A stretch of 64,000 nucleotides of DNA. Source: an uncultured Gammaproteobacteria bacterium (GTDB lineage: Bacteria > Patescibacteriota > Patescibacteriia > UBA9934). Positions 8,346 through 37,227 of the stretch are shown here, piece by piece (position 1 is the stretch's first letter; each line of letters begins with the position of its first letter). The position numbers were made by a program, and so were the translations under genes. The notes beneath the pieces are model-generated. The model was given only the letters and a program-made list of their open reading frames with translations. It did no database searches and was not told where the DNA came from. The stretch lies in contig CAYFMS010000002.1 in assembly GCA_964344415.1 (NCBI GenBank), forward strand, positions 64,142 through 128,141. Direction: 5' to 3'.

Positions 8346-9191
8346 ATGAAGGTATTAATTACGGGCGCCCATGGAAATCTCGGGCAGGATTTGATGCAGG
8401 TTTTTGAGCAGGCTGGTCATGAAGTGCTTGCGACAGATAAAGCGGATCTTGACATCACAAATCTTGTGGCAGTTCTCGATTATGTCCAGAATCAGAAGCC
8501 AGACCTGATTATAAATTCGGCTGCATATAATGCTGTCGATAATGTTGAGGATGATGAATACTATCCTCTTGCTTTCTCAATCAATGCTGGTGGGCCGAGG
8601 AATTTAGCAAATGCCGCGAAGCAGGAGAATATTCCTATCATTCATTTCAGCACGGATTATGTTTTTGACGGGGCGAAGAAGGAGGGGTATGCCGAGGATG
8701 ATGCCATGCATCCGATTTCAAAATATGGCCAGACAAAGGCGGCGGGTGAGCGTTTTGTTCGTGAAAGTGGCGCAAAGTACTATATTTGCCGGCTTTCAAA
8801 GATTTTTGGAAAACCCGGTAAGAGCGAGGTGTCTAAAAAGAGCTTTGTTCAGGTGATGCTCGATCTTGCTAAGGAAAAAGAGTATTTGGAAGTCGTTGAT
8901 GAAGAAATTGGAATGCCGACATATACGGCAGACATTGCCGCGGCGGTTTTGAAGCTTACGAGAGGGGATTTCGAGGCAGGTGTATATCATTTGGTAAATG
9001 AAGGTCCGGGAGTAACTTGGTTTGAATTTGCCAAGGAGATTTTTGAAATTGCGCAGGTAGATATTGAAATAAGGCCTGTACCTTCCTATGATCGGCCGGC
9101 TGATCGGCCAAAATTCGCCGAGCTGAAAAATACAAAATTCCCAAAATTACGCTCGCGCAAAGATGCACTGCGAGATTTCCTAAGCTCCTAA
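8346..9191 (+). CDS. rmlD: dTDP-4-dehydrorhamnose reductase
   Basis: N-terminal Rossmann 'MKVLITGAHGNLG', SDR fold, 281 aa, immediately after rmlC. Confidence 0.85.
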   Translation: MKVLITGAHGNLGQDLMQVFEQAGHEVLATDKADLDITNLVAVLDYVQNQKPDLIINSAAYNAVDNVEDDEYYPLAFSINAGGPRNLANAAKQENIPIIHFSTDYVFDGAKKEGYAEDDAMHPISKYGQTKAAGERFVRESGAKYYICRLSKIFGKPGKSEVSKKSFVQVMLDLAKEKEYLEVVDEEIGMPTYTADIAAAVLKLTRGDFEAGVYHLVNEGPGVTWFEFAKEIFEIAQVDIEIRPVPSYDRPADRPKFAELKNTKFPKLRSRKDALRDFLSS

Positions 9192-9286: not shown

Positions 9287-9502
9287 CTAGGTTTGTGTCT
9301 TAGCAGGTCCGCATTTGATGACCAGAAGCATGGCGCCGCTCATTGCGTATGCGGAGAGCGCCATGTAAATCAGCGGCATATGCGCAGTAGAGCTTCCGTT
9401 CAGAAAAAAGATGATTGTGAGTAGTTTTCCGACTGCATACAATGCTGCGGCAAATGCGAGGGCGGCGGTTTCCTGCTTTATCACTTCTTCTGGTGTATTC
9501 AT
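9287..9502 (-). CDS. small membrane protein (72 aa, 2 TM), hypothetical
   Basis: Strong RBS AAGGAG 6 nt before the ATG (complement of 9500-9502). Own sigma70-like promoter and own terminator. Flanked on both sides by palindrome pairs. Confidence 0.55.
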   Translation of the reverse strand: MNTPEEVIKQETAALAFAAALYAVGKLLTIIFFLNGSSTAHMPLIYMALSAYAMSGAMLLVIKCGPAKTQT

Positions 9503-9533: not shown

Positions 9534-9562
9534 ATACTAAGACATTTTAACGAAAATGTCAA
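9534..9562 (-). promoter_or_regulatory. sigma70-like promoter TTGACA-N17-TAGTAT for the small membrane protein gene
   Basis: Read on the minus strand; spacing is 17 nt. Confidence 0.45.
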
Positions 9563-9582
9563 TGCTTCGTGCTTGGTAAAAA

Positions 9583-9620
9583 TTAAGTCCGACTTAAAAC
9601 AGCAGATTAAAGTCGGACTT
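9583..9620. promoter_or_regulatory. pair of palindromes TTAAGTCCGACTTAA and AAGTCGGACTT, centres 25 bp apart, just upstream of the -35
   Basis: 15-bp perfect odd-centred palindrome plus an 11-bp palindrome; the position suggests an operator or activator site. Confidence 0.5.
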
Positions 9621-9631
9621 AATTTGTGGAT

Positions 9632-9658
9632 AAAAAAACCGCGCTTTGTTCAGCGCGG
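9632..9658 (-). terminator. rho-independent terminator for the 9685..10269 gene
   Basis: On the minus strand: CCGCGCT-GAACAA-AGCGCGG hairpin followed by T7. Confidence 0.55.
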
Positions 9659-9684
9659 TGTACGTACGAGATGGGTCTGTGAGA

Positions 9685-10269
9685 TCACTTTTCGGGAAGT
9701 GACCTACCCTGATTCGTGATCTGTGGCCTGGGCACTTCCGATACCAGCCCCTCTTTCGACGGATCGAGCTGCGATGTGTCGATTTCGAGCTTCAGCCCGC
9801 CGCGGATGACTTCGAATCTCACTTGCTCGGATTCCGCATGGGTGTCCGAGGCTGATTCGAGAGAAAGCGCGCGTAGCCCATTCGCTTCGATGTATGTGGT
9901 GATGAACCACTCAATCATTTTCTTGTCTGCATCGATTGGAAAGCATTTGAGGAATACTCTGCCATGACCCTGTCGAATGACTTCGATAGTCCAGCTTGCG
10001 GCCTCGATCTCCGCCTCCACGATATCACCATCGATGGGGATGAACTCATGTACCGGCCTTGCAGAGCGCAATGTTTTTTCGGCAATCCCTCCGAACAGGA
10101 TGGGCAGGGTCATGATCAAGATGTCCCTGATTGATACGGTGCCTCCGGACATGATGAGTCTGGTAAGCAAAGCGCCGAAAAGTACAGAATAGATGCCAAT
10201 CTGTGCAAGTAACAGACACCAAAGCATTACCAACCTAGACTCTTCAATAAGTCGCATTTTCACCTCCAA
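9685..10269 (-). CDS. membrane protein, hypothetical (N-terminal 2-3 TM plus a soluble C-terminal domain; possibly DUF421/YetF-like); GC-rich relative to its neighbours
   Basis: 194 aa with a GC-rich third codon position, unlike the flanking genes. Confidence 0.45.
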   Translation of the reverse strand: MEVKMRLIEESRLVMLWCLLLAQIGIYSVLFGALLTRLIMSGGTVSIRDILIMTLPILFGGIAEKTLRSARPVHEFIPIDGDIVEAEIEAASWTIEVIRQGHGRVFLKCFPIDADKKMIEWFITTYIEANGLRALSLESASDTHAESEQVRFEVIRGGLKLEIDTSQLDPSKEGLVSEVPRPQITNQGRSLPEK

Positions 10270-10317
10270 AAGTTAGCGACGATTCAATGTATGTCGAAAA
10301 TGTGCAAAAGTCAATAC

Positions 10318-11634
10318 CTATTTTGTAATTTCGATGGAGAAAATGCCATAAGCTTCACCGCGATTTCCAAGGAAATAAAGCGTTTTTCCAGATGCAGAAA
10401 CCCACATATCCTCGACAGATACATTTTCCACAATGGTGTCAGTGTCTCGATCTTCAGCGAGTAGGAATGTATCAAATGCTTCAATGCTATTCTCGTCGGC
10501 AATAAAGAACCTTGCACCGCTTGGGTGGAATGCAACATCATGAATACGATCAGATTGCCGTGTTAAAAACTCGATGGTATTGGTCGACCGGTTGTAGAGA
10601 TTTAATTCGATCTCATCCGAATACAAAATCAGCTCACCGCGGGAAAGTATGTCAAAATCTGTGGCATCGGCTTTAAATCGAATAGGAGTTTCGGCACGTA
10701 AGTCGATTGTGTAGAGCTGACCATGATTATTTGAAAGCAAAATAAAGTTGTTAATGAGCGCCTCGATCTGATAGTCACCGCGCGGCAAAATCGTAATAAA
10801 ATTAGACCCATCATTTGTATCTCTAATAAGCGTCAAATTTCCGCCCTGTATTTCTGTACGCAACAATTCACTGTCGTTTAGGCGCAATAGAACATCGTCG
10901 GCCAGGGTCTCGATAGTGCGGTCGTCAATATTCATTTCACTGGTAGAATCCTCGTCATCAAGGTAGAGAAAATGATCAATGCTTGGATGCCAGCTTGCAG
11001 ATATGATTTGATCCGGCATTTCTTCAGGGAGTACTAACTCTTTCCCGTCATCGGTGTAGACGGCAATAGTATTCGATCCCAGAACAGATATATGATTTCC
11101 ATCCGCGGACCAGTCGATAGCGATATCTTCTGGCGCCATTGCCAGTCTGCCGATATTCTTCACATCTTGATTTTTCAATTTCATGAGCCAGACATCGGTC
11201 CAGCCGGCCTCTTGTGTGCTGTAAACAATATGCGTTCCCTTCGGGTGTACGGAGAGGGCGCCCGGCGGAGTCGTTATGAGTTCGGGTTCATTGTCGAGTA
11301 GAAGAAGCGCGTCTTGAATATATGTTGTGATGCCTTCTTGAATATCGACCTTGCCCGTCCAAGGATGATAATTGTCTTTTGCTAGCTCGACGATATATTC
11401 GCCGGACGCGAGCCGCTTAAACACTTGCTGTGTCTGTTCATCTGTATAGCTTCCATTCAAAAAAATCATTGCATTTCTTGGTGCAGAAGTGATGGAGAGG
11501 CCGCCAGATCGAATGACTTGCCCCGCTTTTAAATTGTATCGATAGCCAGCCGTGTATAAAACAAGGAGTGGCGCTGCGATAAAAAAGAAAAGGGAAAAGA
11601 TAATAAAAAGCGCCGTGCGAAATCGTAAACTCAT
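10318..11634 (-). CDS. membrane-anchored periplasmic protein with a PEGA-like domain and a TolB-like beta-propeller
   Basis: N-terminal TM, PEGA-type motif 'YIVELAKDNYHPWTGKV', and repeated propeller-like 'DWSADGNHISV' and 'SWHPSIDHFLY' blades. Start taken at the internal ATG 'MSLRF' (complement of 11632-11634). Confidence 0.5.
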   Translation of the reverse strand: MSLRFRTALFIIFSLFFFIAAPLLVLYTAGYRYNLKAGQVIRSGGLSITSAPRNAMIFLNGSYTDEQTQQVFKRLASGEYIVELAKDNYHPWTGKVDIQEGITTYIQDALLLLDNEPELITTPPGALSVHPKGTHIVYSTQEAGWTDVWLMKLKNQDVKNIGRLAMAPEDIAIDWSADGNHISVLGSNTIAVYTDDGKELVLPEEMPDQIISASWHPSIDHFLYLDDEDSTSEMNIDDRTIETLADDVLLRLNDSELLRTEIQGGNLTLIRDTNDGSNFITILPRGDYQIEALINNFILLSNNHGQLYTIDLRAETPIRFKADATDFDILSRGELILYSDEIELNLYNRSTNTIEFLTRQSDRIHDVAFHPSGARFFIADENSIEAFDTFLLAEDRDTDTIVENVSVEDMWVSASGKTLYFLGNRGEAYGIFSIEITK

Positions 11635-11701
11635 ATTGCTGTTATGATACCAAGGTTTGATGATGTTGTGGATAAGCGGCACTGTGATAGAATGGGCGGG
11701 T

Positions 11702-29629: not shown

Positions 29630-29911
29630 TTACATTTCTGATTCACCACCTTCTTCGGATCCGCCTTCATCGCCAGATTCCTCGGCTGCATCGTCCATGC
29701 CTTCGTCACCCCCTTCCATTGGAGCTTCCTCAGCCGGTTCTTCCGCCGGCATCTCTGCTGGAGCCTCCTCCATTGGAGCTGCTTCGGTCATTGGTTCGGC
29801 TGCTGGAGCTTCTTCCATGCCTGTGTCGGCATCATCGGACCCGCCTTGCATTCCCATATTAGCGTCTGCCTGATCATCCATCATGTCGGCATCATTATTC
29901 ATGTATGTCAT
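29630..29911 (-). CDS. highly acidic low-complexity protein (93 aa, E/D/A/P/M-rich), hypothetical
   Basis: The terminator lies directly downstream. The antisense Ser/Pro-rich ORF 29622..29873 would start inside a T-run. No clear SD. Confidence 0.35.
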   Translation of the reverse strand: MTYMNNDADMMDDQADANMGMQGGSDDADTGMEEAPAAEPMTEAAPMEEAPAEMPAEEPAEEAPMEGGDEGMDDAAEESGDEGGSEEGGESEM

Positions 29912-30083: not shown

Positions 30084-30159
30084 ACGCCGGTAGCTCAGTT
30101 GGTAGAGCGAGGGCCTTTTAAGCCCGAGGTCGTGGGTTCGAGCCCCACTCGGCGTACCA
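30084..30159 (+). tRNA. tRNA-Lys (anticodon UUU), CCA encoded
   Basis: Cloverleaf folded by hand: acceptor ACGCCGG/TCGGCGT, 'GCTCAGTTGGTAGAGC' D-arm, anticodon loop CTTTTAA, T-arm GTGGGTTCGAGCCCCAC. Confidence 0.85.
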
Positions 30160-30162
30160 AAA

Positions 30163-30190
30163 AATAGTCAGTTTTCTGGCTATTTTTTCT
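30163..30190 (+). terminator. terminator after tRNA-Lys
   Basis: 'tagtcagttttctggcta' hairpin followed by T6. Confidence 0.5.
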
Positions 30191-30257
30191 TGTTGAAGTG
30201 ATTATTATGTTGAATGCATGATTTTATCCACAGATATTTGACAAAAAAATGTGTTCA

Positions 30258-30374
30258 ATGCAAAGTGTAAAGAGTATGCAAAACATTGCACGCCTCATTA
30301 CAAAGAATATTGCGATGGCAATTGTCTGCCTCGTGGTTGGCTTTGTGCTCATTATTGGATTGAGCGGCGTGTAA
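30258..30374 (+). CDS. 38-aa hydrophobic peptide (type I toxin-like), speculative
   Basis: 'MQSVKSMQNIARLITKNIAMAIVCLVVGFVLIIGLSGV'; own terminator at 30400-30430; not in the ORF track because it is under 60 aa. Confidence 0.25.
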   Translation: MQSVKSMQNIARLITKNIAMAIVCLVVGFVLIIGLSGV

Positions 30375-30399
30375 GATTTTGTTAAAACATCAAACAAAA

Positions 30400-30430
30400 C
30401 AACGCTGCTCAGTGATGAGTGGCGTTTTTT
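30400..30430 (+). terminator. rho-independent terminator
   Basis: 'cgctgctcagtgatgagtggcg' followed by T6. Confidence 0.5.
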
Positions 30431-30475
30431 CTTGAGCTGAAGAAGGAAAGGAGTAGCATCTTCTTCAGCTCAAGA
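30428..30475 (+). repeat. hairpin repeat copy 1 (15-bp perfect stem, 14-nt loop 'gaaaggagtagcat')
   Basis: 'cttgagctgaagaag-gaaaggagtagcat-cttcttcagctcaag'. Confidence 0.8.
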
Positions 30476-30730
30476 AGCTGAGGCTCAAAGGGGGAAGCAT
30501 GTCCAAAGTGACTCTCGGAAAGGATACTGTGAATAGTGGTGTAACTACTATTCGTGGTAGTAACCGGTCCAAGCGGCGCAATGACTCGATCGATCAGGTT
30601 GATGTTCCGCGCCCGTCTCTGCAAATCGTACCTCGCGCTGATTGCGACAAAAACAATCGGCATCCTTGGTGGCGATAGCAGAACATCCCGTCCGACTGCA
30701 TTCATCTGTAGTCGGACGGAGAAATGTTTT

Positions 30731-30770
30731 CTAGATTGAAGAAGGAAAGGAGTAGCATCTTCTTCAGTCT
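30731..30770 (+). repeat. hairpin repeat copy 2 (13-bp stem with one G·U, identical loop)
   Basis: 'tagattgaagaag-gaaaggagtagcat-cttcttcagtcta'; shares a 31-bp identical core with copy 1. Confidence 0.8.
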
Positions 30771-30820
30771 ATGAAGACTGAAAAACGAAAATTCTGCCCG
30801 AAAAGGGCTTTGGAGGAATC

Positions 30821-31273
30821 ATGTGTGAAGGAAGGAATGAAGGTTATGCATCTGCGATCGATACGTTGAATCGGAGGCGGCTTCTGCCGGATTCTACTAT
30901 GGAATCTGAGCTGAGCCCCGACGAGGACACGGCGGAGCTCGAGCGAAGCATGCAGAGGGCACGCGATGTGGTTCGGGAAGCGAACCTCGACGACACGGGT
31001 CCGGAGATCGGAACGGATGCATGGCGTCTGCAGATGATGCGGAATCAAGAGCGCGCTCTCGACTGCCGTGTGGACGTCGACGATGCCGACGATGTCATCG
31101 TCCGAAGGACGGTGCCTGACGGTTCCGTGCAGGACATCGATCCACAAGTCGTCGCTGAAGATGCGGGAGTCATGTCTGATGAGCTCACCGACTTCGAGGA
31201 GGAACCTGAGTGGACAGACAACTTCGGTCGTCCGATGGGCGACGCTTCGATGTGGAGTAGTTTCCTGTCGTAA
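30821..31273 (+). CDS. acidic hypothetical protein (150 aa) in a GC-rich insert next to tRNA-Lys
   Basis: RBS GGAGGA; strongly GC-rich third codon positions unlike the host genes; terminator downstream. The antisense ORF 30764..31318 is rejected. Confidence 0.55.
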   Translation: MCEGRNEGYASAIDTLNRRRLLPDSTMESELSPDEDTAELERSMQRARDVVREANLDDTGPEIGTDAWRLQMMRNQERALDCRVDVDDADDVIVRRTVPDGSVQDIDPQVVAEDAGVMSDELTDFEEEPEWTDNFGRPMGDASMWSSFLS

Positions 31274-31295
31274 TTCGCTGAGCACCGACGCCGAT

Positions 31296-31330
31296 ACGCG
31301 CCCGCAATGCAAGAGCATCGCGGGCTTTTT
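31296..31330 (+). terminator. rho-independent terminator
   Basis: GCCCGC-aatgcaagagcatc-GCGGGC followed by T6. Confidence 0.6.
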
Positions 31331-31335
31331 TATTT

Positions 31336-33873
31336 ATGCGTTATAATAGTGCCATGCGAGGGGAATTGATTCATGCCCATGATGTGCCAAAAAAGGAATT
31401 GATTGAGGTGCTCGATGCCTCACTTTTAGGATTGTCTCCCGAACAAGTTGGCCATCAAAGAGAAAAATTTGGATCAAATAAGAAGCGTGAAAAGAAAAGG
31501 GTGACATGGTTGGCAATATTGGCGCGTCAACTCATGGGCCCATTTATTATCATTCTCATCATCGCTGCAGGTATCAGCATTGTACTTCAGGAATTTTTTG
31601 ACGCTTTTGTGATTGGTATCGCCGTCCTTATCAATACGGCACTTGGATTCATCGAGGAATTCAAAGCTGATAGATCACTTGCGAAACTTGAAACATATTT
31701 GCCAGTTCAGGCGCGGGTTCTGCGTGATGGCAAGCAAAAAATGATATCTGCAGAGGAGATTGTTGTTGGTGATATTCTTCTTCTACGTAGCGGGGATAAA
31801 ATTATTGCCGATGCACGCATATTGAATCACGCCAATCTTGAAATTGACGAATCCACATTAACGGGAGAATCGAATCCTGTAATCAAAAAAGATGATGTTC
31901 TTGATAGAGAGGTGTCCGTTCCAAATCGGAAAAATATGGTTTTTGCTGGAACGGCTGTTGTTGCTGGTGAAGCAAAATGTCTTGTAACGGCAGTTGGTGA
32001 CCAAACACAGATCGGCCAAATTGCAGCATTGGTTCAAGATGTAAAGGATGAATCAACGCCACTTCAAAATCAATTGAAAACCCTTGCGAAATGGATCGGT
32101 ATTGCCGTCCTTATTTTGGGAGGAATCATATTTCTTATCGGTGTTCTACGTGGGCGCGCTGCCCTTGAAATGCTTTATATTTCCGTCGCACTTGCCGTTG
32201 CAGCAGTTCCTGAGGGGCTTATTGTTGCTTTGACCGTCATTTTGGCAATCGGAATGCAGAGAATTTTGAAGAAAAAAGCATTGGTTCGAAAATTGGTTGC
32301 AGCAGAAACGCTCGGGGGCGTTTCGGTTATTTGCATGGATAAAACAGGGACGATCACAACGGGTGAAATGACAGTCACGGGAATTACACAAAAGGAAGGA
32401 GAGGATTATGAAGATGTCATGCGGGCGATTGCGGCATCTTCAAAAAATGGAAACTCTCCAACCGATAAAGCGATTACCTCCTTTGTCGATCATCAAAAGG
32501 GGCATGAAATAACTGATCTGCATGTCGTGAAATATCTTCCATTTGATTCACGATATAAATTTTCAGCAAGCATTTTGAATCGTGATTCGGAAAAAGTTTT
32601 ATTTGCTGTTGGAGCTCCTGAAATTCTCTTTGATCGATCAGACATGAATGAGGAAGATGAGATTTGGTATCGAAATCATGCGGAGACGCTTGCAAAAAGC
32701 GGGCGGGTTATTGCGGTCGCACGGGGAAATGCGGTTTCTGATTTATCTCCCGATCATGTACGCGGTCTAAGCATCATTGGCCTACTATTTATTGAAGATC
32801 CTGTTCGGCCGGATGCGAAAGAATCAGTTCGCATTGCTCGCGAAGCGGGACTGCACCCAGTCATTATTACGGGTGATCATCCGCATACAGCGTCTTATAT
32901 TGCTAAAAAAATTGAATTAGATCATGGTCAAATCATCACAGGCAGAGATCTCCAGAATATGAGCGATGCTGATTTGCGCCAAGAAATCAAAACAACAAAT
33001 GTATTTGCGCGTGTACTTCCGCGTGATAAATATCGCATTGTGAAGGCTTGGCATGAACAGGGTGAATCGGTTGCTATGACGGGAGATGGGGTGAATGATG
33101 CACCTGCTATTAAGGCAGCAGATATAGGAATTGCTGTTGTGAGCGGGACGGAAGTTGCAAAAGAAACGGCGGATATGGTTCTGCTCGACAATAGTTTTAA
33201 AACGATCATTTCTGCCATTCGTGAAGGTAGAATCATTTTCGATAATATTCGAAAAGTCGTGGTGTATTTGCTTATTGATAGTTTTAGTGAGATGGTTCTT
33301 GTTTTTGGCGCCCTCATTTTTAATACACCACTCCCGATTTTGCCGGCTCAGATTCTCTGGATTAATCTGATTACAGATGGGCTTCCAAGCCTCGCTCTTA
33401 CCATGGAGCCGGGTGAAGACGGAATTATGAAAGAGGGGCCGCGCCGAAGAAATGAACCAATACTTTCGGGGGAAATGAAGGCACTGATTTTCGGTATAGG
33501 TACACTCACAGCTTTTACACTTTTTGTCATGTATCTCTATCTCATCGGGCAAAAACTTGATATTGACCATATTCGTACATTTATTTTCTTCGCGCTTGGA
33601 ATCGATTCGCTCGTATATGTATTTGCAACGCGCACATTCAGAAAAAGCATTTTCCGAAGTAATCCGTTCAAAAATCGATATCTTATCGGTGCCGTTTTTG
33701 CGGGGCTGCTCATTCAATTTATTCCATATGTCATCCCAAGTCTGCGCGCGGCATTCCGATTAACAAATCTTTCAACGATTGAATGGGTGATTATCGGCAT
33801 TGTTGCTGTATCTCAATTGCTACTTATCGAGATAGTAAAGGAAATATTCAATCATAGAAAAAACAGAAAATGA
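31336..33873 (+). CDS. cation-transporting P-type ATPase (type II, PMCA/SERCA-like Ca2+/Mg2+ pump)
   Basis: 'ICMDKTGTITTG' phosphorylation motif, 'MTGDGVNDAPAIKAADIGIAV', 10 TM, 845 aa. Confidence 0.9.
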   Translation: MRYNSAMRGELIHAHDVPKKELIEVLDASLLGLSPEQVGHQREKFGSNKKREKKRVTWLAILARQLMGPFIIILIIAAGISIVLQEFFDAFVIGIAVLINTALGFIEEFKADRSLAKLETYLPVQARVLRDGKQKMISAEEIVVGDILLLRSGDKIIADARILNHANLEIDESTLTGESNPVIKKDDVLDREVSVPNRKNMVFAGTAVVAGEAKCLVTAVGDQTQIGQIAALVQDVKDESTPLQNQLKTLAKWIGIAVLILGGIIFLIGVLRGRAALEMLYISVALAVAAVPEGLIVALTVILAIGMQRILKKKALVRKLVAAETLGGVSVICMDKTGTITTGEMTVTGITQKEGEDYEDVMRAIAASSKNGNSPTDKAITSFVDHQKGHEITDLHVVKYLPFDSRYKFSASILNRDSEKVLFAVGAPEILFDRSDMNEEDEIWYRNHAETLAKSGRVIAVARGNAVSDLSPDHVRGLSIIGLLFIEDPVRPDAKESVRIAREAGLHPVIITGDHPHTASYIAKKIELDHGQIITGRDLQNMSDADLRQEIKTTNVFARVLPRDKYRIVKAWHEQGESVAMTGDGVNDAPAIKAADIGIAVVSGTEVAKETADMVLLDNSFKTIISAIREGRIIFDNIRKVVVYLLIDSFSEMVLVFGALIFNTPLPILPAQILWINLITDGLPSLALTMEPGEDGIMKEGPRRRNEPILSGEMKALIFGIGTLTAFTLFVMYLYLIGQKLDIDHIRTFIFFALGIDSLVYVFATRTFRKSIFRSNPFKNRYLIGAVFAGLLIQFIPYVIPSLRAAFRLTNLSTIEWVIIGIVAVSQLLLIEIVKEIFNHRKNRK

Positions 33874-37111: not shown

Positions 37112-37227
37112 GATGAAACAGTAATGCATTTTTCCGACTTATGAAGCGATCGACTCATAAGTCAGAAAAACGGTTTGGCAATGTTTGTGCTTTGAAAGGC
37201 GGTATGCTATAAATTTGCAACAAATAT

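Follow-up and report, generated by a model that had tools for sequence, protein, structure and literature searches.

What are two closely matching hairpins, each set in front of a short reading frame, doing in the gap behind a tRNA gene? The question is raised by a small block of atypical DNA between the genes for tRNA-Lys and a P-type ATPase on a metagenome contig of 768 kb (ENA ERZ930061, project PRJEB17505), of which a stretch of 64 kb with an overall GC content of 44%, called the window, was analyzed. A sequence-only reading of this DNA had listed the tRNA-Lys gene, a hydrophobic-peptide open reading frame (ORF) with its own terminator, twin hairpins and an acidic 150-residue ORF, all of which were recovered at or near the positions it had assigned. 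The foreign block, whose inferred extent is 30428-31331 (~0.9 kb), comprises in this order the hairpin H1, ORF59, a minor hairpin T2, the hairpin H2, ORF150 and the terminator T3. The duplicated leader of hairpin plus ribosome-binding site (RBS), lying in front of two genes without known relatives at a tRNA-Lys hotspot, is a real, non-chance feature. We tentatively read the block as a horizontally acquired fragment with two paralogous gene-upstream control modules, which probably act as a plus-strand RNA hairpin. As there are two copies in one genome, they support a modest claim only and do not settle the function.

The two hairpins share an exact repeat of 31 bp (TGAAGAAGGAAAGGAGTAGCATCTTCTTCAG), which is found at 30438-30468 and at 30737-30767, both times on the plus strand, and has no third copy in the 64 kb. 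The repeat search thus returned two occurrences where none was expected; with up to three mismatches allowed there were still two matches in the window, compared to none in 100 shuffles. Inside the repeat lies a loop of 14 nt (GAAAGGAGTAGCAT) that is identical in H1 (30446-30459) and H2 (30745-30758) and occurs at no other site of the window. The earlier description of an identical 31-bp core and 14-nt loop in two direct repeats was exact, with the hairpins themselves reaching slightly further than it had put them. H1 (30428-30477, plus strand) has a perfect 17-bp stem (30429-30445/30460-30476) closed at its base by the pair U30428.G30477, and its predicted fold has about -30 kcal/mol (z = -4.0); it was also folded as DNA. 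H2 (30726-30778, plus strand) has a 13-bp stem (30732-30744/30759-30771) including the pair U30736.G30767, followed by a bulged T/U30772 and six more pairs, one of them U30728.G30776. Folding of both hairpins, which the sequence-only reading had suggested as a check, showed that they fold far better than shuffled sequence (z -4.0 to -6.0).

Thirteen stem pairs are common to H1 and H2, nine of them invariant, three altered on both sides (G-C/A-U) and one altered on one side (C-G to U.G). The three two-sided differences are compensated transitions in the outer stems, and all cells of the common pairs (100%) are paired, compared to 38-50% when the partner columns are slid against each other. The outer stems therefore differ and still pair, as had been claimed, whereas the selection that had been concluded from this is suggested rather than proven by n = 2. 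All three pairs of non-Watson-Crick type are G.U on the plus strand (30428.30477, 30736.30767, 30728.30776) and none is A.C, while the minus strand would give A.C mismatches instead. On the minus strand, the long hairpin of H2 is not the minimum-energy fold. Taken together, the compensated stem differences and the wobble bias favor a structure acting on the plus strand, most simply as RNA in a 5′ leader, and they are a hint that leaders of this kind act as RNA.

Both units also offer an alternative pairing of the right arm with the segment downstream of it, made from different sequences in the two cases. In unit 1 this is an 8-bp hairpin at 30463-30483 (plus strand), formed by 30463-30470 of the H1 right arm together with 30476-30483, as obtained from a constrained fold with the left arm and the loop blocked. 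The counterpart in unit 2 (30760-30785, plus strand) joins the H2 right arm to a segment downstream of it, where an inverted repeat of 11 nt, 91% complementary, folds as 8 bp.

The similarity of the two units reaches beyond the hairpins. Aligned with each other, they are homologous over ~57 nt (30424-30481 and 30726-30782), and after an insertion of 22 nt in unit 2 the similarity returns over the block from the Shine-Dalgarno (SD) sequence to the start codon, GGxGGAAxCATGT, with 12/14 positions matching. Each unit is laid out in the same way, with a preceding hairpin (T1 or T2), H, SD, ATG, ORF and the next hairpin, and copies and ORFs have the same orientation. Judged from this anatomy, the repeated unit looks like a whole gene-upstream 5′ leader and not merely a site. 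Homology that continues into the SD-to-ATG block favors a repeated expression leader over att-like sites, and position, orientation and extent of the repeat together suggest that both imported genes share an upstream control module. The ~57-nt leader repeat with its SD-ATG similarity had escaped the sequence-only reading, as had ORF59, the G.U bias on the plus strand and the scarcity of SD sequences in the host.

The first of the two genes, ORF59 (30499-30678, plus strand), lies between the hairpins and codes for a basic protein of 59 amino acids (isoelectric point, pI, 10.8), preceded by the SD-like sequence GGGGGAAG at 30490-30497. Among 5.8e9 proteins it matches only itself, and it was called as a gene in one assembly and not in the main one. 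On its 3′ side lies T2 (30688-30719, plus strand), a GC-rich 13-bp hairpin without a proper U tract, which was not called by the terminator scan, so that its role as a terminator is doubtful. Two long AT-rich intergenic hairpins at 9580-9625 and 37129-37170 have the motif TCCGACT in common with T2. A grouping of T2 with these hairpins as a 'TCCGACT' family was rejected, as the window shows no enrichment of this motif (10 observed vs. 5.5 +/- 2.5 expected). The region between H1 and H2 is mildly structured as RNA only (z = -2.6, plus strand), a value too weak to call a non-coding RNA there.

The second gene, ORF150 (30821-31273, plus strand), codes for an acidic protein of 150 amino acids (pI 4.05) with 38 aspartate and glutamate residues and has the SD sequence GGAGG at 30812-30816. 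It is followed by the terminator T3 (31300-31331, plus strand), which was read directly from the sequence as a stem (31300-31310/31315-31325) with one mismatch and a subsequent TTTTTT, and which abuts the TATAAT box (31342-31347) of the ATPase gene. The GC content of ORF150 is 0.578, and at third codon positions (GC3) it reaches 0.64, compared to 0.35-0.44 in the neighboring genes; the GC-rich codon usage, strong RBS and terminator ascribed to this ORF were all borne out. An antisense ORF of 184 codons opposite to it has a similar GC pattern. The plus-strand ORF150 was preferred over it because SD and terminator fit; the public annotation likewise has this ORF. No relative of ORF150 was found in a word-indexed search of 5.8 billion clustered proteins, and an exhaustive phmmer search of 1.84 billion (1.84e9) representatives returned only a low-complexity artefact. 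Searches against Pfam, PHROGs and PADLOC gave no match, nor did tblastn against phages and plasmids or a search of IMG/VR. The single-sequence AlphaFold2 model reached a predicted local distance difference test score (pLDDT) of 59, and Foldseek with this model found nothing in PDB and BFVD at E <= 0.001.

Composition and translation signals set the block apart from its surroundings. Its GC content is 0.52-0.63 compared to the window mean of 0.44, and both of its ORFs have strong SD sequences, unlike the SD-poor host. In the latter, SD use is at chance level, with ~6/60 ORFs of at least 120 amino acids having an SD core of 4 nt between -18 and -4. Several host genes have instead a TATAAT-like box ending ~7 nt before the ATG (e.g., 31342-31354, 33889 and 37375). 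Among them is the ATPase gene (TATAAT at 31342-31347, ATG at 31354), which is apparently transcribed leaderless. The scarcity of SD sequences together with a TATAAT just before the ATG suggests that leaderless mRNAs are widespread in this host.

The locus is not an assembly chimera, since contigs assembled independently from three samples cross both junctions with 99.9-100% identity. The only single-nucleotide polymorphisms between the samples across the locus are at 31299, 30190, 30229 and 28317; none is in the hairpins, and 31299 is located just 5′ of the T3 stem. Contigs of other assemblies of the same population end inside H2 (the start of L002 corresponds to window position 30738) and in the loop of H1 (the start of L003 corresponds to 30448). 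These ends probably reflect a break of the assembly at the 31-bp repeat or at the palindrome and not a biological variant.

Based on this, the following mechanism can be proposed. A fragment from a donor that was probably GC-richer, SD-using and unsampled, either an organism or a mobile element, would have lodged in the variable spot between the tRNA-Lys and P-type ATPase genes. It would have brought two unrelated genes, each behind a paralogous module of a hairpin with an identical 31-nt core followed by a similar block of SD, spacer and ATG. As a stem-loop of plus-strand RNA in the 5′ leader, the hairpin would affect in cis the gene that follows it directly. Its loop contains the motif GAAAGGAG, the complement of the canonical 3′ tail of 16S rRNA (CUCCUUUC), with a separate SD located 32-55 nt downstream. 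Pairing of the same SD sequence as in the loop with the anti-SD CCUCCUUUC has been described (PMC10783764). The loop could therefore offer a docking place for a 30S subunit or for a loop-specific protein, and docking may stabilize the mRNA or tune translation, comparable to a 5′ stem-loop or a STAB-SD stabilizer. That the hairpin is transcribed, that it works as RNA, that something docks to it and stabilizes the message, and whether it does so in the present host or did so only in the donor, is what we infer. If true, the block would be a small, clean case in which foreign DNA has come into a reduced genome poor in SD sequences and has retained its own signals for expression.

Several points weigh against this interpretation. 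Since the canonical terminator T1 abuts H1, the latter would be included in an RNA only by read-through, and the promoter scan found no sigma-70-type promoter upstream of either hairpin. The slot between a terminator and an RBS would be the place of a promoter in a standard layout. In a host that makes little use of SD sequences, an SD-like loop may be meaningless, and, the window having no rRNA gene, the motif GAAAGGAG was compared with the canonical 16S tail. The covariation is anecdotal at n = 2 and suggestive only, as the shuffle control cannot discriminate here. Finally, ORF59 and ORF150 are putative genes, unproven as such, the former being called inconsistently and the latter having a low-confidence structure model.

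The place of the hairpins leads directly to the explanation that survives best beside an RNA leader, namely that they act on the level of DNA. The 31-bp core would then serve as a promoter, which might be recognized by a sigma factor or an RNA polymerase specific to the donor, and would lie within a palindromic operator, so that one regulator would control both genes. The element does sit exactly between terminator and SD. Its loop holds TAGCAT, which fits TANNNT, a pattern that resembles actinobacterial -10 boxes, although a TANNNT in a 14-nt loop has a chance of ~14%. The identical core stops 8-9 nt past TAGCAT, near the expected transcription start, and H1 has a TTGAGC 16 nt upstream of TAGCAT, whereas H2 is without a -35-like hexamer at a workable spacing. 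In phages, identical promoters of 20-30 bp ahead of unrelated genes are usual. The promoter scan, however, gave no match at H1 or H2. Since a dimeric DNA-binding protein recognizes its half-sites by their bases, conserved outer arms would be expected rather than covarying ones, and the wobble bias of the plus strand is not explained in duplex DNA. With this evidence on both sides, a promoter within an operator appears rather unlikely.

A further explanation takes the hairpins as the boundaries of a mobile element. In this case, a circle of 299 bp made up of H, ORF59 and T2 would have entered an H site already present, by a Campbell-type insertion that left H1 and H2 as direct repeats, comparable to an integron cassette or to the folded single-stranded DNA of IS200/IS605-type elements. 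Part of the evidence on it comes from the same interval in other genomes. The loci of relatives were reached via protein matches; their nearest MurG proteins are only 50-58% identical, and no near-isogenic empty site was among the relatives reached. A MurG-based retrieval of the locus in GTDB representatives found nothing. The frame of murG at one end and ATPase-murD at the other is present in the relatives L006, L009 and L010 as well as on a 617-kb JGI contig known from its gene table. The tRNA-Lys(UUU) gene follows murG in L006, L009 and L010 and is located on the opposite strand in the truncated L008. It is a landmark kept in the interval from murG to the ATPase gene, with a mean column identity of 93% over the orthologues of L006, L008, L009 and L010. 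What follows it differs in each of four distant relatives, and the content of the window is absent from them. The relatives therefore carry other cargo and not the same content with a host-like composition. As the cargo differs each time at the same place, the interval between tRNA-Lys and the ATPase gene is a lineage-wide variable hotspot.

In L006 (GCA_043818555.1), an exact direct repeat of 34 bp (8749-8782 and 9378-9411), which contains a terminator hairpin, brackets a RelB/YafQ toxin-antitoxin module, followed by a glycosyltransferase gene. L009 carries a block of 1.8 kb (9560-11340) with 55-66% GC and four minus-strand ORFs of 69, 146, 143 and 145 amino acids, which match no Pfam family and show no protein similarity to the ORFs of the window. 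In L010, an ORF of 65 amino acids after tRNA-Lys lies between two related palindromes, TCAGTATCACCCGGTGATACTGA and TCCGTGTCACCCGGTGACACGGA (9871-9893 and 10276-10298), with compensated differences. A third inverted repeat, containing GTCACC, was observed in L010 at 11584-11647 before the ATPase gene. L006 also shows a 13-nt direct repeat of the tRNA-Lys 3′ end (8547-8559 and 8733-8745, 186 bp apart), which looks like an att remnant.

These observations have been weighed with regard to recombination as follows. Direct repeats that bracket a small cassette at a tRNA-linked hotspot fit such an origin, as does a strand-specific hairpin fold, which is also found in attC sites and at IS200/IS605 ends. 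The cassettes of L006 (RelB/YafQ) and L010 (65-residue ORF) are likewise bracketed by repeated hairpins, and the 13-nt direct repeat of the tRNA 3′ end in L006 points in the same direction. The bracketing hairpins of the relatives are, however, unrelated in sequence and resemble plain terminators or palindromes. No integrase, transposase or HUH gene is located within ~10 kb on either side of the block, and the ORFs of the insert have no such domains. The core motifs of attC are either missing or wrongly ordered, and extrahelical bases are lacking in the stems. There are two copies only, all three samples keep the same undeleted arrangement, and the similarity of the SD-ATG block beyond the hairpin is not predicted by recombination. 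An origin of H1 and H2 as recombination sites is thus improbable.

The sequence-only reading had pointed to tRNA-Lys as a classic site for the integration of islands, while noting that neither an integrase nor a tRNA-derived direct repeat was to be seen. Both absences were confirmed. For the genes called within ~10 kb on either side, the precomputed Pfam matches are to housekeeping families, the ORFs of the insert match no Pfam family, and the 24-mer of the tRNA 3′ end, with up to three mismatches allowed, occurs only in tRNA-Lys itself. The 8-mer GGCGTACC of this end was found only in tRNA-Lys and inside murG, with no copy at the far boundary. Like tRNA-linked genomic islands, the block has a tRNA gene upstream, an atypical GC content and codon usage, genes without known relatives and a content that varies among relatives. 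Unlike them, it has no integrase and no repeat of the tRNA 3′ end, a host-like gene lies in between, and it is only ~0.9 kb long. Of the features of an island, it therefore shows atypical composition and variability among relatives only. Because integrase and tRNA-end copy are missing and a host-like gene separates tRNA and block, an integrase-type insertion at the tRNA lacks support. What stands of the earlier claim is an insert of atypical composition on the 3′ side of the tRNA that is absent from relatives; its start has to be moved from 30160 to ~30428, since the host-like peptide gene lies between.

The block could also be an inert relic, i.e., recently acquired dead DNA in which the hairpins are paralogous intergenic pieces of the donor without a role here and the ORFs are silent. 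ORFs without known relatives, the low-confidence structure model of ORF150, the inconsistent gene call of ORF59, translation signals foreign to an SD-poor host and the lack of a recognizable host-type promoter are all in line with this. But both ORFs are still open, the 31-bp core is identical between the copies even though their flanks diverged, and in three samples the block is fixed and has stayed intact. In addition, this explanation addresses the present activity only and leaves the shape of the hairpin in the donor unexplained, so that we give it little credence. That the interval from tRNA-Lys to the ATPase gene is a cassette-capture site without a nearby integrase, where short cassettes enter and leave by recombination at strand-specific hairpins and are each left between two hairpin copies (here, in L006 and in L010), is very improbable, although H1 and H2 would then be a new kind of structured recombination site.

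Further copies of the hairpin were searched for at several levels. An inverted-repeat survey of the window showed no dispersed repeat family to which it would belong, so that the common intergenic repeat considered earlier does not apply to an element with two copies in 64 kb. A search with a covariance model built from H1 and H2 detected no further copy in the window and in six loci from relatives (64 kb + 64 kb). Rfam has no family for the hairpin, the only gathering-level matches in the window being two tRNAs; at E <= 10 the H1 region gave only sub-threshold chance matches (17-22 bits vs. cut-offs of 50-82) and H2 none. The 22-mer GAAGGAAAGGAGTAGCATCTTC spanning the loop had no match in GTDB representative genomes, IMG/VR and JGI metagenomes. 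A scan of IMG/VR with a 16-mer of the loop returned five matches, none in a hairpin context, which were regarded as chance, and neither the leader nor the whole insert had a significant match to phage genomes in blastn.

Several element classes were considered for the hairpins and rejected. They are no intrinsic terminators, as H1 is followed by GCTGAGG and H2 by TGAAGAC without a U tract, and the terminator scan called only T1. A CRISPR array is excluded by the presence of two copies only, 299 bp apart, with an ORF and a hairpin in between, compared to CRISPR spacers of ~30-40 bp. Elements of the insertion sequence type IS200/IS605, palindrome-associated transposable elements (PATE) and repetitive extragenic palindromes (REP) were discarded due to the two copies only in the 64 kb plus 64 kb of relatives' loci and the missing Pfam match of the insert ORFs, which gave no sign of a Y1/HUH transposase or a REP-associated tyrosine transposase (RAYT). 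Diversity-generating retroelements and retrons were ruled out on anatomy.

The surroundings of the block are those of a compact cell-wall and division cluster with the gene order mraY, ftsW, murG, gap, P-type ATPase gene and murD. The tRNA-Lys gene with the anticodon UUU (30084-30159, plus strand) was identified by ARAGORN and matches the Rfam tRNA family with 67 bits. An acidic low-complexity ORF rich in glutamate, alanine, proline and methionine adjoins tRNA-Lys in the window (29630-29911, minus strand) as well as in L006 (8139-8309) and L009 (9285-9509). The copy of the window, upstream of the tRNA, has 93 amino acids, a pI of 4.05 and no lysine or arginine. Homology to the acidic ORFs of the relatives is not claimed, as the likeness is compositional only (E = 0.14).

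Between the tRNA gene and the block lies the hydrophobic-peptide ORF (30249-30374, plus strand), which codes for 41 amino acids from the first ATG or 38 from the ATG at 30258. It has a host-like GC content of 0.42 and lacks an SD; probably it does not belong to the foreign block. It had no match in Pfam and PADLOC, and with PHROGs only a weak one of unknown function (E 0.025). A perfect TTGACA hexamer was read directly from the sequence ahead of the ORF at 30239-30244. Size (38-41 amino acids) and transmembrane character of the peptide recall type I toxins, the weak PHROG match (E 0.025) being the sole further pointer. The ORF is followed by its intrinsic terminator T1 (30401-30432, plus strand), identified by terminator scan and fold as a stem (30401-30426) and a subsequent T run, which overlaps the base of H1. 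An exact 10-nt repeat, TTTTTTCTTG, brackets the peptide ORF, with one copy (30183-30192) after the post-tRNA-Lys hairpin (30159-30188) and the other (30425-30434) after T1; its occurrence is estimated to be roughly the chance expectation for AT-rich terminator tails.

Compared to known systems, the putative leaders share single traits with several of them. In the early transcripts of phage T7, intergenic hairpins with an internal loop and small terminal loops are processed by RNase III. As in T7, related hairpins recur here between the genes of a foreign transcription unit, each before an RBS, but the stems have 13-20 bp and a large conserved terminal loop. Integron attC sites and arrays of them lacking an integron integrase (CALIN) also have directly repeated strand-specific hairpins around a small, promoterless-looking cassette with no integrase nearby. 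In contrast to these, the R''/R' cores (RYYYAAC ... GTTRRRY) are missing or inverted here, the stem of H1 is perfect without extrahelical bases, and there are two sites only. Moreover, the hairpins precede ORFs and have a downstream SD block in common. An identity as attC was rejected, since H1 shows cTTGAGC ... GCTCAAg, i.e., the reverse order with 6/7 positions each, and H2 is without GTT/AAC cores.

With regard to the SD-like loop, a parallel is the STAB-SD of cry3A of Bacillus thuringiensis, an SD-like stretch within the 5′ untranslated region (UTR) that is bound by the 30S subunit and forms a block to RNase J1 (PMC4113751). Both cases (for STAB-SD, Agaisse and Lereclus, 1996, via PMC4113751) have an SD-like sequence apart from the true RBS that is complementary to the canonical 3′ end of the 16S rRNA, with the loop GAAAGGAG compared to the canonical SD GAAAGGAGG. 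In distinction to STAB-SD, the SD-like sequence is here shown in the loop of a hairpin with a stem of 13-17 bp, the host is SD-poor and a location in the 5′-UTR is putative.

The closest analogue in architecture are the extended start-associated and start-associated sequences (ESAS/SAS) of Cluster K mycobacteriophages. They consist of imperfect inverted repeats of 17 bp with a short spacer, located just upstream of a conserved block of 13 bp that includes the SD and is separated from the ATG by a few bases (Pope et al., 2011; PMC3203893). They precede small, unrelated, non-structural genes in one orientation and in unusually long intergenic regions (PMC3203893), and their function was still unverified in 2025 according to a survey of 188 genomes (PMC12699233). 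The corresponding elements here are arms of 17 and 13 bp, a spacer of 14 nt and the RBS block GGxGGAAxCATGT in both units. With SAS defined as the consensus GGGATAGGAGCCC with at most two mismatches, 3-7 bp before a start codon, membership of the insert in this family was rejected, as the match is one of architecture without sequence similarity. Between 30160 and 31335 the consensus does not occur within three mismatches, and its window-wide count (6 observed vs. 7.5 expected) corresponds to chance. The 14-nt loop is identical in both copies here, in contrast to the spacer of ESAS, which varies and mostly has 4-13 bp, and the hairpin is 12-34 nt away from the SD block, to which ESAS is directly adjacent. 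Furthermore, there are only two copies, and they are located in a bacterial chromosome and not in a phage genome. If the tentative interpretation as imported leaders is true, they would represent a second, sequence-unrelated example of a leader built from an inverted repeat plus a conserved RBS block, which has so far been described only in Cluster K mycobacteriophages.

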